Shown piece after piece: positions 1 through 8,412 of a stretch of 64,000 nt of DNA (position 1 is the first letter of the stretch; each line of letters starts with the position of its first letter). The stretch spans positions 1-64,000 of the forward strand of contig JBEKVV010000003.1 in the NCBI GenBank assembly GCA_049513715.1, given 5' to 3'. The notes below the pieces were generated by a model. It was not told where the DNA came from. It saw nothing but the letters and a program-made list of their open reading frames with translations, and did not search any database. Made by a program: the position numbers and the translations under genes. Origin of the DNA: Candidatus Bathyarchaeia archaeon. GTDB lineage: Archaea; Thermoproteota; Bathyarchaeia; 40CM-2-53-6.

Positions 1-239
1 AGTGGGGGGAACATGGTCTTCCCATTTATTACAGGGAAGGCTCCTGAAGCCCAAGATAATTCAGGCATTGGCGCAACGGCCGCAGGCGCGACAACGACAT
101 TGCTTTTGCCCGGAGGTATTGGCGGGCCAGCCCCGGCGTCAGCTCGTGCAATGGGAAGGCCTGGATAAGGATTCGAGATGGGTACTCCGAAAATAAGGAG
201 CAAACACGCGAGACATATGAATGGTAAGGCTCGCGTCAA
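1..239 (-). CDS. 5' part of a putative secreted protein, runs off the left edge
   Basis: Manual translation from TTG at 239: MTRALPFICLACLLLIFGVPISNPYPGLPIARADAGAG..., signal-peptide-like, no stop before base 1; not in the ORF track. Confidence 0.55.
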   Translation of the reverse strand, partial: MTRALPFICLACLLLIFGVPISNPYPGLPIARADAGAGPPIPPGKSNVVVAPAAVAPMPELSWASGAFPVINGKTMFPP

Positions 240-586
240 AACATGAAACCGAAGAACATTGGGTTCCGTTAAGTTATATTACTTATGACGTGTTGTGACT
301 ACAAAAACACGTGTGTAGCTTGAGGTGTACGCGGGATCAACCCTTTCTCGCTGCGGCCAAGCCTTTAAACCAATGACCTATGCTCAGAGGAAGTATGTTC
401 AGTACACGTACCGTGAAATGTCGATTAGGCACAAGGAACAAGTCGCGATCAGAAAACGCAGGTAGTGGTATAGCAGATTCGGGAGAGTGAAATCTCGCGT
501 ACCTAATCCTGCGACTGAGGTCTAGCTGAATAGAAGCCACAACTCTCCAAACCATCCGAACCGATTGAAGCCTAGCCCAAGCAGCC

Positions 587-635
587 ACCAAACGGTTTGC
601 CGCTCTTACGCACCAAACTACAATGTCACGTTACC
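587..635. repeat. Terminal inverted repeat of a second IS6-like element (element A; partner end not in window)
   Basis: Reverse complement GGTAACGTGACATTGTAGTTTGGTG...CCGTTTGGT matches 22 of the first 25 nt of the IR at 1570-1620, with the same two GTTTGGT boxes. Confidence 0.8.
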
Positions 636-643
636 CACTGAAC

Positions 644-660
644 GGTAACGTAACTTTGTC
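644..660 (+). repeat. End-like motif GGTAACGTAACTTTGTC (possible terminus of a degraded element C)
   Basis: Shares terminal GGTAACG with the IRs; resembles 4996-5015; lies ~75 bp before a transposase remnant. Confidence 0.45.
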
Positions 661-732
661 CTGGAGAGAACAGTAAAACTGAGAACTTTGAAATCTTTGA
701 CATTTGACGAAAATGGAACCTACTGAGAACTT

Positions 733-838
733 CATAACTATGTCAGGCCGCATGAAGCATCGAGAGGAAGAACACCTGCTGAAGTAGCGGGCATCGAAAT
801 CGAAGGCGAGAACAAAGTGGCTCACTTTTCAAAACGCG
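733..838 (+). pseudogene. IS6-like transposase 3' remnant
   Basis: HNYVRPHEASRGRTPAEVAGIEIEGENK then +1 shift WLTFQNA; aligns with the C-terminus of 2146-3267 (HNYIRPHEALNGKTPSELAGIQVKGKDKWLTIIQNA). Confidence 0.85.
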
Positions 839-840
839 AA

Positions 841-1209
841 CTTACGACTCGGCACCAAGAAAAGGCAAACAAGATTGCCAAACTAGAGGTTCTTAGAGGA
901 CAAATTAAAAGGAAGTACGGACCGGAAAATGTTTGGTTTTTAGAAAAGATTGATGGCTATTCTCGGTTAGCACGCGTGAATGGTTTCCTAGGGACTCAAG
1001 ACATAGCCTTTATCGGCCTGAACCCAAGTACCAGCAGATTCCCAACCAACGCTGACAAGTACTTCTACAGTCAGCTTCTTCGGCATGGTTTTGACGATGC
1101 TCATCTAAGCGATTTGGTCAAGATTAAAGCAGAGAACAAGAAGAATGATTTTGTGTGTGGTACTAGCGGTGCGGCCGGTCAAATTCTAAATGTGAATCAT
1201 GTCTATTGA
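841..1209 (+). pseudogene. Truncated uracil-DNA glycosylase superfamily-like ORF
   Basis: IAFIGLNPS motif-A-like and HLSDLVK motifs; C-terminal half absent; no clean start codon. Confidence 0.45.
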
Positions 1210-1561
1210 GCTAAACGTGATCGCTTAAGCGAAGCACGATTGGTTCCAGTTTGAACAGCCAGTCTTGGAGGATTAATCGCGGCCGACAAGAGGGAAAAAG
1301 CTCGTTAAGGGCTCCTTGTCAGCATCCATTCTGCCTAAAGACAGCTCAAAACGAGCCGAAAACCTGCTAAGTCGACAGTTCTAAACGACGGTGTGAAGCT
1401 AGCCCGAGGCTCCATTAAGAACCCATAGCTTGGTGAATAATCCTTAGGCCGTGTTCAATTCAAAATCCATGCTATGCTCAAATCGATAACGGTTTTTAGC
1501 GCTTAAATCGACATCGAACAATTCGGCATTTACCCAGCGTAACAACCAGCAATAAAGGTCG

Positions 1562-1569
1562 CTTTCGGC
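1562..1569 (+). repeat. Left 8-bp target site duplication CTTTCGGC
   Basis: Identical to 4236-4243; abuts terminal GG at 1570. Confidence 0.9.
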
Positions 1570-1620
1570 GGTAACGCGTCATTGTCGTTTGGTGTGGGAA
1601 GGCGCGGCAATCCGTTTGGT
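1570..1620 (+). repeat. Terminal IR downstream of the transposase
   Basis: GGTAACGCGTC-N6-GTTTGGT-N19-CGTTTGGT. Confidence 0.9.
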
Positions 1621-1640
1621 AAAACCGCCTTGGCATTGAA

Positions 1641-2110
1641 TCACTTGATGAGAAACGTGTAGAATATCATGAAGGATAGGAAGGCAATTATTCCTAGAAC
1701 CAAGAATGAAGCAATCTTGAACCCCGTTGGACCAGATAATGTGAGAGGTCTTCCCGCGATTACAGTGTAGCCACATTGCCGAGCTTGCTCTATTCTTTGT
1801 CGAAACTCTAATCTCAGTTCTTGTTCAATTGCCACCATCCTATTTACAGCAATTTCAGAGAACTGTTCGTTCCTCTTGATGAATAGAAGCCAAGAAATGA
1901 GTGCGACGGTCGCGGCAAAATCCGCGAATACAGGTATTAGGGGTGCATCTTCACTTGGCTTGCGATAGCGAGGCTACCCGTTACGGCCGCCAAACTTCCT
2001 CCGATTAGAATTGAGCCGAGTTGCCAGTTTAATGTAGTCAAGTGGATTGCATAACGGTTAGCTTCCCCGTATTCGATGAGTAGGCTTCTATGCCACTCTT
2101 CCACAGACAA
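1641..2110 (-). pseudogene. Frameshifted ~3-TM cargo membrane protein
   Basis: TTG 2110 MSVEEWHRSLLIEYGEANRY...NWQLGSILIGGSL...KMHP* joins LIPVFADF...WLLF...RMVAIEQEL if one base is added to the G4 run at 1940-1943. Confidence 0.6.
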
Positions 2111-2145
2111 ATGATACTCAGAACATGAATGGACATGGTCTTTGT

Positions 2146-3267
2146 TTAATTCTTTCTACTTGCGTTCTGGATGATAGTCAGCCACTTGTCTTTCCCTTTG
2201 ACCTGAATCCCTGCAAGTTCCGAGGGCGTTTTGCCGTTCAGGGCTTCGTGTGGTCGTATGTAGTTGTGGTAGATTTGCATACCTGAAAGAATCGGAGAAT
2301 CCGTTCTCTTTAGAGTCCGCATTACCTTTTCGCGCTGGCGTAGTTCTCCGTTGAAGCGTTCCATGCGGTTGTTGTTGCGATCTCCTGCTAGTCGTATGTG
2401 GCGTATGTGTTCTGTGCGATCTGCAACCTTACCCGTCCAGAACTCATACGAGTAAGCTTCATGGAAGTTCGCCGCGCCATCTGTGATGAAGGTTTTCGGT
2501 TTCTTACCCGCAACTGCTTTCCCAAGTGCTAGAAGTGGTCGGACATCTGCCGTGTACTTCGTGCTAGCGACTTCTTGTGCTATCCAGAATCGTGTTTGGT
2601 CGTCCATTAGGGCGTAGAGGTACTTGAGGTTCCCTTTCATCTTCAGAAACATCTCATCCGCGCGCCAAGTGTCGGAAAGTTGCGGCTGAATCTTCGACAG
2701 ATACTTCTCCATCAGGGTTGTGTACTTGTTAATCCACCTGAGAATCGTTCGTGGTGAAACCTCAACGCCAATCATGCGTAATGATCGGGCCGTGTTCCTT
2801 AGAGATTCACCGGAGAAGTACAACTGCATGGCTGCGGTTATGCCCTGTGGGCTATGCTTCATCTTCTCGAAACCAATATTCACCGTAAAGAATTTGCCAC
2901 ATGACTTACAACTGAATTTCTGAATGTCACCATACTTGTTGTGTCGAACACCCCACTTGATTATGCTCTCAGATTTGCAGAATAAGCAAGCGTGAATGTC
3001 AGTGATCGGCTCGATAACCCTAGCCTCGACCTCTTTCCTCACGGCTAGGCTAAGTTGGACAGCCCAAACGTGCTTGCATCGGACATTTCGATAGACGAAA
3101 TCGGGGCAAGTACACAACCAACCGCCTGTTCGTTTCTTTGTAACATCATACATGCCGTTACCTGACTGAGAAGTTACACGGTAGAACCGTTCTTCTAATC
3201 TCATGATTTGATTGGACTTCTCAGCAATCATTCGGCCTCTTTCTTCACGAGAGAGAACTTGAGCCAT
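2146..3267 (-). CDS. IS6-family (IS240-like) DDE transposase with N-terminal SWIM and Zn-ribbon domains
   Basis: SWIM CTC-x9-CKH; CLFC...CKSC ribbon; HTH SLRNTARSL; catalytic WRADE, ITDG, MERFN; C-terminal HNYIRPH. Confidence 0.93.
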   Translation of the reverse strand: MAQVLSREERGRMIAEKSNQIMRLEERFYRVTSQSGNGMYDVTKKRTGGWLCTCPDFVYRNVRCKHVWAVQLSLAVRKEVEARVIEPITDIHACLFCKSESIIKWGVRHNKYGDIQKFSCKSCGKFFTVNIGFEKMKHSPQGITAAMQLYFSGESLRNTARSLRMIGVEVSPRTILRWINKYTTLMEKYLSKIQPQLSDTWRADEMFLKMKGNLKYLYALMDDQTRFWIAQEVASTKYTADVRPLLALGKAVAGKKPKTFITDGAANFHEAYSYEFWTGKVADRTEHIRHIRLAGDRNNNRMERFNGELRQREKVMRTLKRTDSPILSGMQIYHNYIRPHEALNGKTPSELAGIQVKGKDKWLTIIQNASRKN

Positions 3268-3286
3268 ACTACTGCACTACGAGTAT

Positions 3287-3314
3287 TACGCATATGCGTA
3301 CTATTGATATAAAG
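3287..3314 (-). promoter_or_regulatory. Transposase TATA box (TTTATAT, 3308-3314) and 14-bp palindromic operator candidate (3287-3300)
   Basis: Perfect palindrome TACGCATATGCGTA between the TATA box and the ATG. Confidence 0.55.
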
Positions 3315-3382
3315 TTTTACCCATGTGGCTAAAGCAGTACCATTTCAGCACAACACATTAATACTACCATAATACACTAGGA

Positions 3383-3559
3383 ATGCTTGAGATGACTATG
3401 CCCGAAACTGAAAGCGTGAAAAAAGAAACGACCTCAATCAAGGTTGACCCTGATCGATGGAAAGAGGTCAAAATTGAGGCAATCAGACAGAACAAAACAG
3501 TTTCCGATCTGGTCATGGAGGCGATAGCCGAATGGATGAAAGCGCACCGAAAGAAGTGA
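3383..3559 (+). CDS. Ribbon-helix-helix (CopG/ParG-like) DNA-binding protein, 58 aa
   Basis: Manual translation ...KETTSIKVDPDRWKEVKIEAIRQNKTVSDLVMEAIAEWMK; below ORF-track cutoff; start could be 3392 or 3398. Confidence 0.8.
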   Translation: MLEMTMPETESVKKETTSIKVDPDRWKEVKIEAIRQNKTVSDLVMEAIAEWMKAHRKK

Positions 3560-4023
3560 CTGACGCGCACCCTGCGGACAAAGACAAGGTCACATGGGAT
3601 ACATGGTACCGCGTAGCGAGAGAAAACGTGATCTCCACTAAAGCGTCAATCAAGACTCAAATCGGCCTGTTAGAAGGCGTGGAACCACAGACCACGAATA
3701 TACCGATCTACGCGTCCGCTCTTATGGCAAGCACCGTGAATGTTCTCAAGCACAGTATGACCATCTATGATGACTTGAAGATCATTCTTGAAGGTTTGAA
3801 TTTTCAGTGGCAACAATTGTCAAGCCTTGAATCGAACATGAACACGAAAGTCAGAGTGTTGGAAGAAGCAGCAAGAGGTACTAGAAGCGACTTAGACGCT
3901 GAGATTGCGACAACTGCAAAAACGTTGTCAACAGTCAACGATTTCGTGACCCATTTCAAGCCTTTGCTTGAAGAACTTGAGAATGAACGACCAATAAGAA
4001 ACAAAACATTGGGGAGAAAGTAG
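3556..4023 (+). CDS. Coiled-coil hypothetical cargo protein
   Basis: ORF 3532-4023; GTG at 3556 overlaps the RHH stop (GTGA); helical heptad-like sequence. Confidence 0.65.
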   Translation: MTDAHPADKDKVTWDTWYRVARENVISTKASIKTQIGLLEGVEPQTTNIPIYASALMASTVNVLKHSMTIYDDLKIILEGLNFQWQQLSSLESNMNTKVRVLEEAARGTRSDLDAEIATTAKTLSTVNDFVTHFKPLLEELENERPIRNKTLGRK

Positions 4024-4028
4024 CCCTC

Positions 4029-4259
4029 ATGACCGAAAACTTCGATGATTCACTAAGGCGCATTCAAGACATTGGAACGAATATCCAGAAAATGCTCGAT
4101 GAGATCACAGGGAACGAAGTCATTGACGACTTCATTTACACCGAACAGCAAGAAAAGGAATGGCTGAACACCGTCCCAACCTTCACCAAACGAATTTACA
4201 CAGCCATACCCACCAAACGTAGACGACGCGTTACCCTTTCGGCGGTAACGTTACCTTAA
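4029..4259 (+). CDS. Small acidic hypothetical protein reading through the IR
   Basis: ATG 5 bp after the previous stop; stop lies outside the element. Confidence 0.45.
   Translation: MTENFDDSLRRIQDIGTNIQKMLDEITGNEVIDDFIYTEQQEKEWLNTVPTFTKRIYTAIPTKRRRRVTLSAVTLP
4185..4235 (-). repeat. Terminal IR upstream of the transposase
   Basis: Reverse complement GGTAACGCGTC-N6-GTTTGGT-N19-CGTTTGGT; same spacing as 1570-1620. Confidence 0.9.
4236..4243 (+). repeat. Right 8-bp target site duplication CTTTCGGC
   Basis: Identical to 1562-1569. Confidence 0.9.
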
Positions 4260-4901
4260 CGTCGGTTCCCTCTGCCTGTTACTTTCCGTCTGCTGACTGA
4301 AAATGGACAAGTATCCCTGAACCGATGTGACCTTCACATCTAACGGTACCCAACTAGCGTTGCTAATCTTCTCTCTTAGCCTTCCATCTTCAGTGATAAA
4401 ATAAGCGCACTTCTGGTAAGACGCTGTCGCAATCAAGATTGCATCATAAGTCTCTGTTCTCACTATGGTTCTCAGCTTTACGAACTCTCGAAAGTCATAT
4501 TCATCACCGACAAACGAAATGTACTCGTGCGGTGGTTTGAAGAATTCCTGAGTAAGATGCGCCAACTGCTTGACAATGTCTCCAACATCTTCAGCAGTTA
4601 GTTGAATTGCGTGCTCCTCACGTTGGAACAATTTCGCAGTAATTCCCTGCGAGTGCATCTTCTCTTCAACGAATTGATCAACAAGTACAGAGAGTATCTC
4701 TGCGTATGTCAATTGAGAAGTAGTCAGCATACCTTGAAGTTGCTTGTCGGTTCTTACGCGTTCCAACAGGAGATATGATGGAACATACCTAGCTAGAACC
4801 TGGAACAAGGCTTCTCTATCAACTTTAGCAGTTCTAAGAGAAGCGTCAATGAACACCCAGTTCGCTAAGACACTAGTGTCCAAGAATCCCGTAACGTTCA
4901 A
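4251..4901 (-). CDS. PIN-domain (VapC-like) nuclease
   Basis: FLDTSVL, AEI, YDAILIATA, FITED acidic PIN motifs. Confidence 0.85.
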   Translation of the reverse strand: MNVTGFLDTSVLANWVFIDASLRTAKVDREALFQVLARYVPSYLLLERVRTDKQLQGMLTTSQLTYAEILSVLVDQFVEEKMHSQGITAKLFQREEHAIQLTAEDVGDIVKQLAHLTQEFFKPPHEYISFVGDEYDFREFVKLRTIVRTETYDAILIATASYQKCAYFITEDGRLREKISNASWVPLDVKVTSVQGYLSIFSQQTESNRQREPTLR

Positions 4902-4995
4902 GGGCTTTTTCCCAAAAGGTCTTGCGTCTCTTCTTTCGACGCTTCTTAGGCAAAATCAGACCTCTTGGTTTACATGGTGTTATGATGTAAAAAGG

Positions 4996-5015
4996 GGTAA
5001 CGGTACCTTTTTGTC
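4996..5015 (+). repeat. End-like motif GGTAACGGTACCTTTTTGTC (possible terminus of degraded element D)
   Basis: Terminal GGTAACG; similar to 644-660; downstream of the remnant at 5833-6072 and its cargo, as in element B. Confidence 0.4.
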
Positions 5016-5154
5016 AGATTGTTTTTGAGCGGGTCCTATCAAATTCTAGGGGGATGATCTAGGCTGTCAAGTGTCGATCAAGAATCGGTTGATAAACACA
5101 TTTCATCGGTGCATGAGGTCGGGTATGCCTATCTAGAAAAACCTGACTACACGA

Positions 5155-5517
5155 TTACAATGTTACCGCAGCTTCGGAGCTTAATATGTCATTGATGATT
5201 CTTGTCGGTTCGTTTCGCAAGCGATGCCATCTTATCCCCGTATATAGCGCTACAATAAGAGAAAGACATGATGCCACAACAAAAATCGTCACTGTCACAC
5301 TAATTGGTTCGCTTGCGTGATACAATGTCGCAAGAGCAGCTAGCGCGGTGAAGAAGATACCTAGTGATGTTGTCATAAACCCGAAGTCTTGTGAGACGGA
5401 ACCAAACGCCTGCCTAAGAGATTCTAGCTTTTCGCCCGTGATTTGATAGATTTTGATGGTGGGCGGAGTTGCATACATGATTCTAGGTGCAGGTGCAACT
5501 GAAAAGTCGCCGCTCAT
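5155..5517 (-). CDS. Two-TM membrane protein
   Basis: ATG 5517 preceded by GGAGG; two hydrophobic segments; overlaps the upstream stop (ATGA). Confidence 0.7.
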   Translation of the reverse strand: MSGDFSVAPAPRIMYATPPTIKIYQITGEKLESLRQAFGSVSQDFGFMTTSLGIFFTALAALATLYHASEPISVTVTIFVVASCLSLIVALYTGIRWHRLRNEPTRIINDILSSEAAVTL

Positions 5518-5780
5518 GGATTTCTCTCCTCCACTATCTTCAGATCCGGAGTGGCAACACTTGAGGCGAACATTTCCAGATAGCCACAATTCCCACAGAT
5601 TAGGCAGAGTGCTGGCACTATCCTCGTGGGTATCGGAACTGCCTTCGGGGGGGTAAGAATTCCCAGCATGACATTTTCGTCGGTAACTAGCCATTTATTC
5701 TGATGACAAATCGGGCAATTCGGGCTTGCGCCTTTTTCTTTTAGTGCCGCGAAAAATCGAGTCCTCTACTCTTCAGTCAT
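5514..5780 (-). pseudogene. Zn-ribbon protein with in-frame TAG at codon 5
   Basis: MTEE*RTRFFAALKEKGASPNCPICHQNKW...LICGNCGYLEMF; TAG at 5766-5768. Confidence 0.65.
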
Positions 5781-5832
5781 TGGCACAGCCGTCAGCTCTT
5801 GTTACGTAGGAGTGCCATTGCCTCTTTAACAA

Positions 5833-6072
5833 TTACGAATTCTTGCGACTGTCAGTCGGTCGAACTGAAGCATTCTGGATTAGCGTGAGCCACTTGTTTT
5901 CACCTTCAACTTTGATTCCAGCGGCTTCGCTCGGTGTTTTTCCGTTCAATGCCATGTGTGGGCGCACGTAGTTGTGGTAGATTTGCATTCCTTTCAAAAT
6001 CGGTGTGTCTGCTCTTTCTAGAGAGCTCATACCTCTTTCTCTGTCGCGGATTTCTCCGTTCATTCTCTACAT
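5833..6072 (-). pseudogene. IS6-like transposase 3' remnant
   Basis: M*RMNGEIRDRE...PILKGMQIYHNYVRPH...KWLTLIQNAS; close match to the C-terminus of 2146-3267. Confidence 0.9.
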
Positions 6073-6206
6073 TTCTGTCTCTCGGAGAAGTGTAATATCG
6101 TTAAGCCGATTCTCTCTTTACCCAAACACGAAACCCGCGCCTCTCAGGACCGTTAGGATCCGCAGCGGTCATTTTCATCTTCTGGACTGATGGAACCGTC
6201 TGAAAT

Positions 6207-7556
6207 ATGCGATTCATACGGAGTCAGCGGGAAGAGGGAATTAGCGAGTTGCTTCCACGAAAGGGCGTATACGAGGAGCGTACTCGGGCATCGCGTGCAA
6301 TGTTCGAACGTGCATGTAAGGTTGAGCCGGCGGGTGTATCTTACAAGAACCGCTTTTTCGAGCCCTACCCATTCTTTGTGAAGAAATCCAAAGGAGCCAC
6401 AATCACTGACCTAGACGGCAATACGTACACTGACTACTGGTGCACGCACATGGCGATGATTCTAGGACACACGAATCCAACTGTAATGGAAGCCATCAAG
6501 CGTCAGGTGGAAAATGGGTGGCATCATGGCTTTGTCCATGAGCTAGAAGTAACTCATTCAGAGGCAATAGTAAAACATGTGCCGAGCGCTGAGATGGTTC
6601 GTCACGCGAGCTCTGGAAGTGAAGCCAATTTCTTCGCCGTGCGTCTAGCGCGAACTTTCACAAAACGCGCCAAAGTTGCCAAGTTTGAAGGAGCATGGCA
6701 CGGCGCATACGACCCCCTGCACATCGCGATGAAGCCCCCATTCGACAAGCTTCCTTCAGGGGGCATTACCAAAGGCTCACAACAGGACACAATTGTCGTT
6801 CCGTTCAACGACTTGGAGGGGTTCAAGAACCGCGTGAAAGGTGCGCGACTAGGGGCAGTTATCCTGGAACCTGTCCTGTTCGCTGGCGGATGCATTCCAG
6901 CTGATAGAGAGTTCGTCAAGGCGATGAGGGAATACTGTGACGATACGGGCGCTCTCCTCATCTTTGATGAGATTATCACAGGCTTTAGACTCGGCTTAAG
7001 CGGTGCACAAGGGCACTATGGCGTTGCACCGGATCTCACTGTCCTGGGGAAGATTATCGGCGGTGGGCTGCCCATAGGTGCCATTTGTGGTAGACGTGAT
7101 GTGATGGAACGTATGGATCACACGAAATACTCAGGCCCCGATTATGCCTATCATGGAAATACCTTTTCCGCGAACGCAATTACATTGGCTGCGGGGCTCG
7201 CGACGATCAATGTACTCGAGCATTCCCCAGTGTACGAGCACATTGACAAGCTGGGACATCTTGCGCGTGAAGAGATGAACAGGATCTTCCAAGATGCGAG
7301 TTTTCCAGCGCAGGCAGTCGGCATCGGTTCAATGTTTTGCATACACATGACAAACAAAAAACCGCTAACAGACATCAGCGGTTACGCGCATTACGACCAC
7401 GCCCAATACAAGAGGATGTTCAATTTCCTGCTCGAGAATGGCATAGTGATCCTGTTGCCTGAAATAATGCACGGCGGAATCAGCTATGCCCACACGGAGA
7501 AGGATATCGAGCACCTCACTCACACTATAGGGAGATATGTCAAGTCCGAATCGTGA
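6207..7556 (+). CDS. hemL: Glutamate-1-semialdehyde aminomutase-like class III aminotransferase
   Basis: DLDGNTYTDY, SGSEA, FEGAWHG, LIFDEIITGFR, LGKIIGGGLP; substrate and start codon uncertain. Confidence 0.8.
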   Translation: MRFIRSQREEGISELLPRKGVYEERTRASRAMFERACKVEPAGVSYKNRFFEPYPFFVKKSKGATITDLDGNTYTDYWCTHMAMILGHTNPTVMEAIKRQVENGWHHGFVHELEVTHSEAIVKHVPSAEMVRHASSGSEANFFAVRLARTFTKRAKVAKFEGAWHGAYDPLHIAMKPPFDKLPSGGITKGSQQDTIVVPFNDLEGFKNRVKGARLGAVILEPVLFAGGCIPADREFVKAMREYCDDTGALLIFDEIITGFRLGLSGAQGHYGVAPDLTVLGKIIGGGLPIGAICGRRDVMERMDHTKYSGPDYAYHGNTFSANAITLAAGLATINVLEHSPVYEHIDKLGHLAREEMNRIFQDASFPAQAVGIGSMFCIHMTNKKPLTDISGYAHYDHAQYKRMFNFLLENGIVILLPEIMHGGISYAHTEKDIEHLTHTIGRYVKSES

Positions 7557-7638
7557 TAGAAAGACAGACTTCGCTGTCTCTCGCCGGACCCGCTTTCAGT
7601 CATCGCGGATTCGGATTGATTATGCTGAGATTGCAAAT

Positions 7639-8412
7639 TCAATTGAAACTGCCAATGAAGTTCAGGGGCTTACTCACATTCCTTGCAAGCTGCCTCGCGC
7701 TGTGAGACGGGATTGCACAGAGTACAACGGTGGCGGGTCCAGCGGATTTCTTGATGTCTATGTTCAACAGGGAATTCAAACTGAGGCGCAGGTGAGAATC
7801 CTCCGCCATCGTTTTGGCTTCTTCGAATATGCCACGTGAACCAACTGGCATAAGCTCACGCACAAATGGCAGCTTGAGCATAGATTGGATGTCCTTGATG
7901 TCTGCGATTTTGTGAGCCCTTTCGGCGCTCAGCACTTCATTTCCCATGTGTGGAGTACCTACGGCGTAGAGCATATCTCCGCGTCTACACTGACCTACCC
8001 TCAACGAGCTCATGGTTGATAGGCCGACGACCGTGACACCCACCCCCGTTTCGTTCACGCGAAAGTTCTTCTCTGTACTTTGGATCTGCGAAACTGGAAA
8101 ACTCAGTGAGGCATGTCTCACCTCGTGGCTAATGCCCCTCAAAATTCCTAGTCCCGTAGGGTTAGGCTCAACGGTGAGCGTGCTCGCAACGCAAACAGGC
8201 ATGGCTCCCACGGATAGCACCTCCATGAGAGCTACTCTTGCAGTGAACTTCCCCACTGCATATCCACTCACCCTCACCTTGTCCAACCACTTGGGTCCAA
8301 TTCCACCAGCTGAATCGCAACCTACCACCATTACCCGACCCCAGCTTAGTCTGATTATGCGAACATCACGCCGAGTAAAGATACTCTTGACGCCCGAAAA
8401 TGCCGCTCTCAA
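7639..8412 (-). CDS. cblS: Alpha-ribazole kinase CblS-like (PurM/AIR synthase fold)
   Basis: CDSAGGIGPK, RVALMEVLSVGA, STEKNF...TGVGVTVVG, PVGSRGI; within the cob cluster. Confidence 0.75.
   Translation of the reverse strand: MRAAFSGVKSIFTRRDVRIIRLSWGRVMVVGCDSAGGIGPKWLDKVRVSGYAVGKFTARVALMEVLSVGAMPVCVASTLTVEPNPTGLGILRGISHEVRHASLSFPVSQIQSTEKNFRVNETGVGVTVVGLSTMSSLRVGQCRRGDMLYAVGTPHMGNEVLSAERAHKIADIKDIQSMLKLPFVRELMPVGSRGIFEEAKTMAEDSHLRLSLNSLLNIDIKKSAGPATVVLCAIPSHSARQLARNVSKPLNFIGSFN

Follow-up and report, generated by a model that had tools for sequence, protein, structure and literature searches.

The first 64,000 nucleotides of contig C3 (JBEKVV010000003.1), referred to here as the window, form the start of this contig in the 2.79-Mb genome of a Candidatus Bathyarchaeia archaeon and carry stacked members of one transposon family, among them the intact element B. 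Element B (1570–4235, minus strand, 2666 bp) has imperfect two-part inverted repeats at 1570–1623 and 4182–4235 and is enclosed by two copies of the 8-bp target duplication CTTTCGGC, a promoter-proximal one at 1562–1569 and a distal one at 4236–4243. Five base pairs past the proximal copy, a TATA-like box, TTTATT (1551–1556, minus strand), reads away from B. Downstream of this box lies an operator-like palindrome, GTTAC-N5-GTAAA (1529–1543, minus strand), a motif that is also found at the chaperone and protease genes of this genome. The distal copy abuts the right-type end (GGTAACGTTACC type; 4244–4300, plus strand) of an older, decayed element C. Further to the right, an isolated family end of the GGTAACGGTACC type (4996–5040, plus strand) belongs to a further decayed element, and a transposase 3' remnant (5866–6072, minus strand), 71% identical to that of B, reads towards the ends at 4996 and 4244. 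On the other side of B, the remnant right end of an element A (587–635, minus strand), about 80% identical to the right end of B and with no transposase in 1–586, is separated by the 8-bp spacer CACTGAAC (636–643) from the remnant of an element D (644–816, plus strand), in which a short, weak end is joined to the 3' part of a transposase gene (658–816). Like A and D, element C is a remnant.

Within the window, CGTTACC-N8-GGTAACG has exactly two occurrences, 629–650 with the spacer CACTGAAC and 4229–4250 with the spacer CTTTCGGC, whereas 100 shuffled windows contain none, even with one mismatch allowed. The sequence-only reading of this locus had picked out these two junctions and had recognised the second spacer as the duplication of B, and both observations hold. 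With a profile of 240 family ends, six ends were located in 1–8000, namely 635 (minus), 644 (plus, weak), 1570, 4235 (minus), 4244 and 4996, so that each junction consists of two family ends placed back to back. A loxP- or dif-like recombination site (inverted repeat-N8-inverted repeat) was rejected because both arms run on as full transposon ends. What had been taken for a pre-existing palindrome at 4244–4255 does abut the duplication of B, but it is merely the first 12 bp of an ordinary family end (profile score 21.6). The proposed decayed termini at 644 and 4996 are both family ends; the former is weak (score 7.9), and the latter lies off any 8-bp junction, its outside 8-mer differing from the duplication of B. 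The other end of A, which had been expected to be preceded by CACTGAAC, is absent from the assembly in a profile search, as is any partner end with CACTGAAC for A or D; this spacer is presumed to be an old target duplication. Genome-wide counts of GTTACC-Nk-GGTAAC (k = 0–30) reach four at k = 8 and three at k = 3, with 0–1 at every other k, but the reversed-pattern control is five in this genome, so that the 6-mer count carries little weight when taken from this genome only. In 23 genomes of the genus, N8 sites number 37 (in 13 genomes), against 14 for N9 and 13 for the reversed-pattern control. Contigs of four DNA runs, possible sources of this DNA, span 98–2599 and 2596–7000 without conflict and hold no empty allele or circle of B.

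The transposase of B (373 aa, 2146–3267, minus strand) consists of a SWIM finger, an IS1/IS1595-type Zn ribbon, a helical segment and a DDE_Tnp_IS240 core in which D204, D263 and E303/E313 are conserved. It matches PF13610 with 49.2 bits (cut-off 27), and its best NCBIfam match is the IS6 model NF033587 with 103 bits, below the cut-off of 125; the IS256 model scores 17.6 bits. Its closest relatives are Bathyarchaeia records. A sequence search of the PDB returned no match, and an alignment-based structure model (pLDDT 82) matches only DDE/integrase cores of the RNase H/integrase fold, its N-terminal part being barely probed. The ends of B begin with GG, match at 12 of 14 positions and extend as imperfect two-part repeats over about 50 bp; IS6 termini are near-perfect inverted repeats of 14–20 bp that begin with GG. 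An 8-bp target duplication is found for B and for 120 distinct elements of its relatives, which measure 2.0–8.1 kb and contain regulator-like and cargo genes, unlike the compact IS6 elements of 0.7–0.9 kb (up to 1.8 kb), in which the transposase is the only gene. The family is an IS6-related group of archaeal cargo transposons and not a canonical member of IS6.

Loci of the relatives were fetched with the transposase as the anchor, without using the motif. Among 191 distinct near-full transposases, the 120 distinct elements were delimited by GG...CC repeats and an 8-bp duplication, and a pass that assumed neither the end sequence nor the duplication length also gave mostly 8 bp. Three loci identical to the window (L110–L112) were excluded from the counts. 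Another end is abutted at offset 0 in 93 of 240 flanks, and 99 of 101 back-to-back junctions in the relatives are of exactly 8 bp. Stacking is general in the family. The view that one archaeal SWIM-DDE family is at work, that its ends stack at exactly the duplication length and that the stacks collect varied cargo is borne out. The sequence-only reading had gone further and had proposed that the element takes an existing terminal motif as its target and inserts 8 bp away from it, like IS30 and IS911. Besides the junction length, such targeting finds support in the 25 of 120 elements that have ends on both sides, many with an intact transposase, in an intact fourth-rank copy in the L033 array and in the precedent of IS30, for which inverted-repeat targeting is established (excerpt of PMC9333248).

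The flanks that do not abut an end tell a different story. A TATA-type word lies at offset 2–8 in 81 of these 147 flanks, with a sharp peak at 6–7 and frequencies of 1–7% in shifted windows. No end is touched by 52 of the 120 elements, and 36 of these 52 have a TATA word (controls 2–18%) about 5 bp past the duplication. If a site were chosen for its end, both sides of a founder should become filled; instead, elements with an end on one side only (n = 43) have a TATA box on the other side in 40 cases and another sequence in three. Apart from the 25 elements with ends on both sides, the remaining classes are TATA plus other (31), neither (16) and TATA on both sides (5). Junctions also join unlike end types (about 9 of 84), and the 8-bp spacing, being the duplication length, would follow from re-use of the site. 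An element named X is present in this genome in two identical copies (0 differences in 2748 bp). One, at C2:146968, abuts an older end across its duplication and has an hsp20 promoter as its free flank, whereas the other, at C2:73001–75748, has neither an end motif nor GGTAAC on either side of its duplication, an outcome that the sequence-only reading had itself named in advance as refuting its model. As the main route, targeting of the own terminal motif is largely refuted and, as an explanation of the family, very unlikely; it may act as a minor second route.

At these promoters, the TATA box reads away from the element. Among the genes behind it are those for Hsp20, thermosome, HtpX, TBP, TFB, RadA, EF-2, SUI1, rpS8e and rpS24e, as labelled from a scan of 32 of the 46 open reading frames (ORFs); eight of the 32 have no family. 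Elements are inserted in either direction (42 versus 32). About 5 bp separate the duplication from the TATA box, so that it stops at the upstream border of the TFB-recognition element (BRE), leaving the promoter, as read from sequence, intact and facing away. Random insertion with survival of only the harmless intergenic copies would likewise place elements beside important genes in a gene-dense genome. Selection of this kind, however, would not yield a register exact to 1–2 bp, nor the re-use of the same 8 bp, nor the occupancy of 11 out of 11 hsp20 promoters by different elements, and this explanation is barely credible.

The stacks are polar. The transposase is intact in 35 of 39 first-rank copies, counted from the promoter, in 14 of 27 second-rank and in 0 of 6 third-rank copies, and of the 50 array termini that share the junction spacer, 42 are TATA flanks and eight are not, four of the latter being missed ends; the P values computed for the arrays are too favourable, since the genomes are kin, the hsp20 sites are orthologous and the fetching favoured intact copies. 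Spacers within one array are the same 8 bp, with two mismatches, at ranks 2 and 3. The geometry and the polarity are observed, and the order of events suggested by them is as follows. Elements of 2–8 kb with GG...CC ends and an 8-bp duplication lie at a fixed register upstream of promoters. As the duplication copy nearest the promoter stays equally far from the TATA box, the next insertion would use the same 8 bp and push the older elements outward, giving the order duplication-old-duplication-new-duplication-TATA. Ends would then abut at exactly 8 bp without any end recognition. In the window, B would be the newest, promoter-proximal unit of a stack growing rightward from the TATA-like box at 1551–1556 with its operator at 1529–1543, and C and the element at 4996 would be older, decayed units of the same stack. 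The junction at 629–650 would represent a second, older stack, the anchor of which is lost or lies past the contig end.

Integrons and CRISPR arrays also grow in a polar manner at one end, regenerate their target at each step and hold varied cargo. Integrons rely on a tyrosine integrase, attI/attC sites and a promoter that reads into the array. The arrays of the B family differ in having no dedicated integrase or att sites, each unit being a DDE transposon of its own with duplications. The earlier likening of the locus to an integron-like hotspot fails on expression, as the host promoter points away from the array.

Further stacks were noted in this genome. Upstream of a tfb gene, C9:845–1900 holds a decayed stack whose junction, at C9:1858, measures 8 bp. 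A junction of 7 bp is found at C3:118261, and C2:124089–125964 is a pair with GGTAAC ends that has an 8-bp duplication but yields no transposase match.

The branch to which B belongs, with GGTAAC-type ends, appears to use a narrower set of promoters. An operator is present in all 28 TATA flanks of intact GGTAA-ended elements, against 9 of 48 for other elements; it has the form TTAC-N5-GTAA (one N7 variant) and lies about 19 bp past the duplication. When all GGTAA ends are considered (n = 226), 141 abut an end, 48 have another flank and 37 a TATA flank, and 36 of these 37 carry the operator motif. In this genome, the operator palindrome occurs 13 times. Two occurrences lie beside element ends, one of them being the flank of B, and 11 at chaperone or protease genes or at one winged-helix gene: those for three thermosome subunits, hsp20 and htpX, the winged-helix-like gene of 250 aa, and two genes labelled from their motifs as DnaK-like and Cdc48-like. 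At the loci of sister genera, two native operators surround the TATA box in 17 of 19 cases, and the winged-helix gene and hsp20 share the promoter. These native pairs imply that the motif is the host's. Apparently, as judged from motif positions, this is an undescribed heat-shock regulon of Bathyarchaeia with a candidate repressor, and the B branch would be restricted to promoters with this heat-shock-type operator, GTTAC-N5-GTAAC. Stacking is more frequent in this branch (49 of 53 elements) than in other elements (19 of 67), because each genome offers only a handful of such targets.

The candidate repressor is the 250-aa gene at C1:164522–165330 (genome G000), which has a weak C-terminal winged-helix match and matched no named family. 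It lies behind GTTAC-N5-GTAAC operators and is apparently co-transcribed with hsp20 in sister genera (L229–L247).

In the transposase tree, operator targeting falls into one 62-row clade (SH-aLRT 92) with 51 GGTAA-ended and 11 other-ended members. Eight of the latter hit operators, with three more rows in a second clade, so that GGTAAC ends are not required for operator targeting. This result bears on two alternatives. A host heat-shock repressor might bind GTAAC half-sites of the element ends as well as those of the operator and, by bridging them, deliver the transpososome to the regulon. The operator at 36 of the 37 target flanks, the match of the end to a half-site and the 250-aa candidate behind the operators and upstream of hsp20 in sister genera would fit, but clade members with ends other than GGTAAC go to these promoters as well, and the TATA box sets the register throughout the family, including promoters without an operator. 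Such a bridge is highly improbable. Alternatively, the transposase itself may read the TATA box, or its bendable shape, and, in this branch, the GTTAC half-site, with the same register and no host protein. The target classes do track transposase clades (the operator clade, a four-member radA clade and promoter-sharing pairs), the transposase has extra N-terminal Zn domains, and the end GGTAACG and the operator half-site GGTAACA share six of seven bases. The eight operator-hitting members with non-GGTAAC ends argue against such a read-out, as do TATA words that vary at a constant register and the TATA association of short IS6 elements without SWIM at another offset. A direct read-out is unlikely, if less far-fetched than the bridge.

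The radA-promoter clade (L081, L083, L091 and L096) is a separate transposase clade (SH-aLRT 98). Its targets, in Nitrosotalea and Nitrosopumilus, carry a GGTAC-type palindrome; RadA was confirmed for two of them, and the other two contigs are cut.

The likeness of end and target on which the sequence-only reading had built thus persists in another form: the GGTAAC end is probably not itself the target, but it equals a host operator half-site and rebuilds the operator at hsp20. Each of the 11 hsp20 promoters that were read in the genus has an element end at one register, the ends belonging to different elements. In all 11, the GTTACC of the end, the duplication and the next base together form GTTAC-N5-GTAAC just upstream of the TATA box. 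Of the 37 GGTAA ends next to a TATA flank, 27 restore the operator in this way, 26 of them at hsp20-type promoters, and the combined pattern of TATA box and operator within 260 bp was found at none of 46 loci from other genera. At hsp20, the cut would fall inside the upstream operator and the element end would supply the displaced half-site, so that the operator is rebuilt after every insertion. The rebuilt motif is legible in the DNA; its function is a matter of inference. Rebuilding would keep host regulation and regenerate the target, the outermost operator now being transposon-derived, and it presumably preserves host repression. Selection for repair of the site may have shaped the ends, or else the host may have taken over the end as a half-site. 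In one genome of another family (L250), where no element end is present, a native operator lies upstream at the same 4-nt spacing.

Insertion at a promoter register with re-use of the site, a branch restricted to one regulon and a ruler formed by TBP and TFB is the probable account of these observations. The ruler is most likely the TBP–TFB complex at the promoter, by analogy with Ty3 and TFIIIB and in view of the fixed register. Repressed heat-shock promoters with TBP and TFB bound might, as a conjecture, serve as a long-lived tether. A predicted complex of the transposase with host TBP and the TFB core scored 0.00 when folded without alignments, which is evidence neither way. A wider scenario, in which a basal-complex ruler is a general trait of archaeal IS6 elements and the lineage of B comprises a heat-shock-regulon specialist with operator-half-site ends, rebuilt sites and genus-wide polar, gene-collecting arrays, is tentative and somewhat more doubtful than not.

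The role of the SWIM finger was approached with short IS6 elements lacking it, a control that had been meant as a negative. The search at a strict threshold gave only two loci; the set used comprises 90 loci (L275–L364; GC content 56%, probably haloarchaea), of which 23 were delimited and 67 were not. A TATA word at offset 2–8 is present in one of the 23. After a first look, the word list and the window were widened, and in this post hoc form a TATA-like word at offset 8–14 was found in 11 of 23, with 0–17% in shifted windows. The elements with such a word about 10 bp past the duplication are of a 697-bp type, while a 745-bp group has it in 0 of 4. As elements without SWIM also lie near TATA words, SWIM probably does not determine the site by itself, and the idea that it is the targeting domain lost support through this post hoc result. 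The promoter habit may be wider among archaeal IS6 elements.

Several points weigh against the preferred account of promoter-register insertion and site re-use. The promoter and operator assignments are read from sequence and position. Neither TATA word nor end is present at 16 of the 120 elements, including the X copy at C2:73001, so that the targeting is a preference, and 71 of the 191 transposases were not delimitable. Fetching by full-length transposase inflates the counts of intact modules, and of the 37 operator flanks, 26 come from orthologous hsp20 sites of related genomes and are not independent. In the L033 array, the intact rank-4 copy is identical to the rank-1 copy and inverted; this single case fits intramolecular replicative transposition. 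No empty hsp20 promoter allele was found among the 11 promoters read in the genus. For this reason, the native upstream half-site rests on the sister genera, where the spacing is 1–2 nt, and on L250. At B itself, the site drives no visible gene: no ORF longer than 26 aa starts within 250 bp downstream of the box at 1551–1556, which is probably a relic or orphan promoter in a mobile-element graveyard. The operator of B is not rebuilt, nor does either window spacer rebuild one.

Within a literature of mostly open-access papers (PMC6640164 and PMC3119063 among it), no report of promoter-register targeting in archaea or in the IS6 family was found; ISfinder or Filee et al. 2007 may contain a note on target preference. 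With IS6 elements (IS26, IS257, IS6100; the tIS ISDsp3; the Zn-finger clade h), the B family shares the DDE_Tnp_IS240 core, GG...CC ends and the 8-bp duplication. It differs in its 373-aa SWIM and Zn-ribbon enzyme, its size of 2–8 kb and the regulator and cargo genes inside long two-part ends. According to the main text of an IS6 review (PMC7986276), some long members have an N-terminal Zn finger, and only ISDsp3 has a passenger gene. The terms "TATA" and "SWIM" are absent from that main text, and its promoter passages concern hybrid promoters, not targeting. IS26 targeting is described there as a conservative reaction between two copies, whereas each new element of the B family makes a fresh duplication. 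Replicative cointegrate formation and targeted conservative fusion are further traits of IS6.

The closest functional match is provided by TnGBS/ISLre2 (p-MULT3) and ISKra4, which, in the excerpt of PMC3942029, insert 15–17 bp before the -35 box and leave the promoter intact; the B family likewise lies at a fixed distance upstream of promoters. Those elements have Mutator-superfamily enzymes, use bacterial sigma-A promoters and are mostly oriented, whereas the B family combines an IS6-like enzyme with archaeal TATA/BRE promoters, both orientations, polar stacks and a regulon preference. For archaeal ISH6, the same source merely suggests a preference for AT-rich sites. Ty3 is described as tethered to TFIIIB/TBP, its integrase being placed within a few bases and the insertion being harmless (bioRxiv 10.1101/2021.07.27.453949, in part). 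Ty3 is a retroelement of eukaryotes that goes to Pol III genes, and its tether has been solved, in contrast to a DNA transposon whose tether is presumed. IS30 and IS911 share the end-to-end junctions with a fixed spacer, but in those systems the target is the end itself, and the junction serves as a reactive intermediate (excerpt of PMC9333248); in the B family, the junction spacer is a duplication that the neighbours share, and a promoter forms one terminus of the array. The HSR1 operator, CTAAC-N5-GTTAG, and the regulator Phr, which blocks RNA polymerase while TBP/TFB stay bound (PMC9133787, in part), resemble the Bathyarchaeia case, in which a palindromic operator of the N5 form likewise precedes both hsp20 and the gene of the regulator itself. 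The Bathyarchaeia motif, GTTAC-N5-GTAAC, is different in sequence and paired around the TATA box, and its candidate regulator matched no named family.

The remaining features of the window concern regulation and cargo. Upstream of the B transposase, a putative promoter (3287–3313, minus strand) comprises a TATA-like box at 3307–3313 and a 14-bp palindrome at 3287–3300, possibly the site for a small ribbon-helix-helix (RHH) protein. A 58-aa RHH-like gene (3383–3559, plus strand) is divergent from the transposase, and its slot is held by small regulator-like genes in many relatives. Transposase promoters of the relatives, like that of B, have a TATA-like box flanked by element-specific repeats, and the divergent small gene beside them is RHH-like, AbrB/MazE-like or of no recognised type. 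From this arrangement, each element likely has a private repressor–operator pair. The cargo comprises a 163-aa ORF in B (3532–4023, plus strand), with no Pfam or NCBIfam match and a homologue in L113, a PIN-domain gene of 216 aa in module C (4251–4901, minus strand) and a 179-aa ORF (5155–5694, minus strand) with no Pfam match. The 120 elements hold 554 candidate ORFs in 398 clusters, with 341 singletons, many of them probably spurious. Most of 100 scanned ORFs have no Pfam match; those with a name include a DNA methyltransferase, restriction genes, NYN, RelA/SpoT, DUF4145, DUF3800, SocA, a ClpP-like protease and four proteasome-subunit-like ORFs.

Positions 1130–1520 of the window are a patchwork of short stretches shared with C1:300280, C3:86143, C6:66500 and C9:19722, one of which resembles the flank of a tRNA-like attachment site; no tRNA gene was found in the window. 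The locus looks like a mobile-element graveyard. Positions 1–176 match the end of contig C2 in reverse complement at 93% identity, and other assemblies break there too. Short, MITE-like repeats with GGTTCTGTTAAC ends occur in G000 at C1:872324–872687, C4:449, C5:136, C5:221599, C6:110204, C7:92772 and C8:90311. As they lie near many contig ends, they probably explain the assembly breaks.

Taken together, the interpretation replaces self-targeting by a safe-harbour strategy for archaeal promoters, which would be the archaeal counterpart of TnGBS/ISLre2 and Ty3. New are the GGTAAC branch at promoters with a heat-shock operator and an element end that would double as a host operator half-site. 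In uncultured archaea, insertion sites of this family would pinpoint promoters with single-base precision. If the habit holds for the short, haloarchaeal-type IS6 elements, it could be tested in a genetic model such as Haloferax and may offer a tool for promoter-directed, non-disruptive integration.

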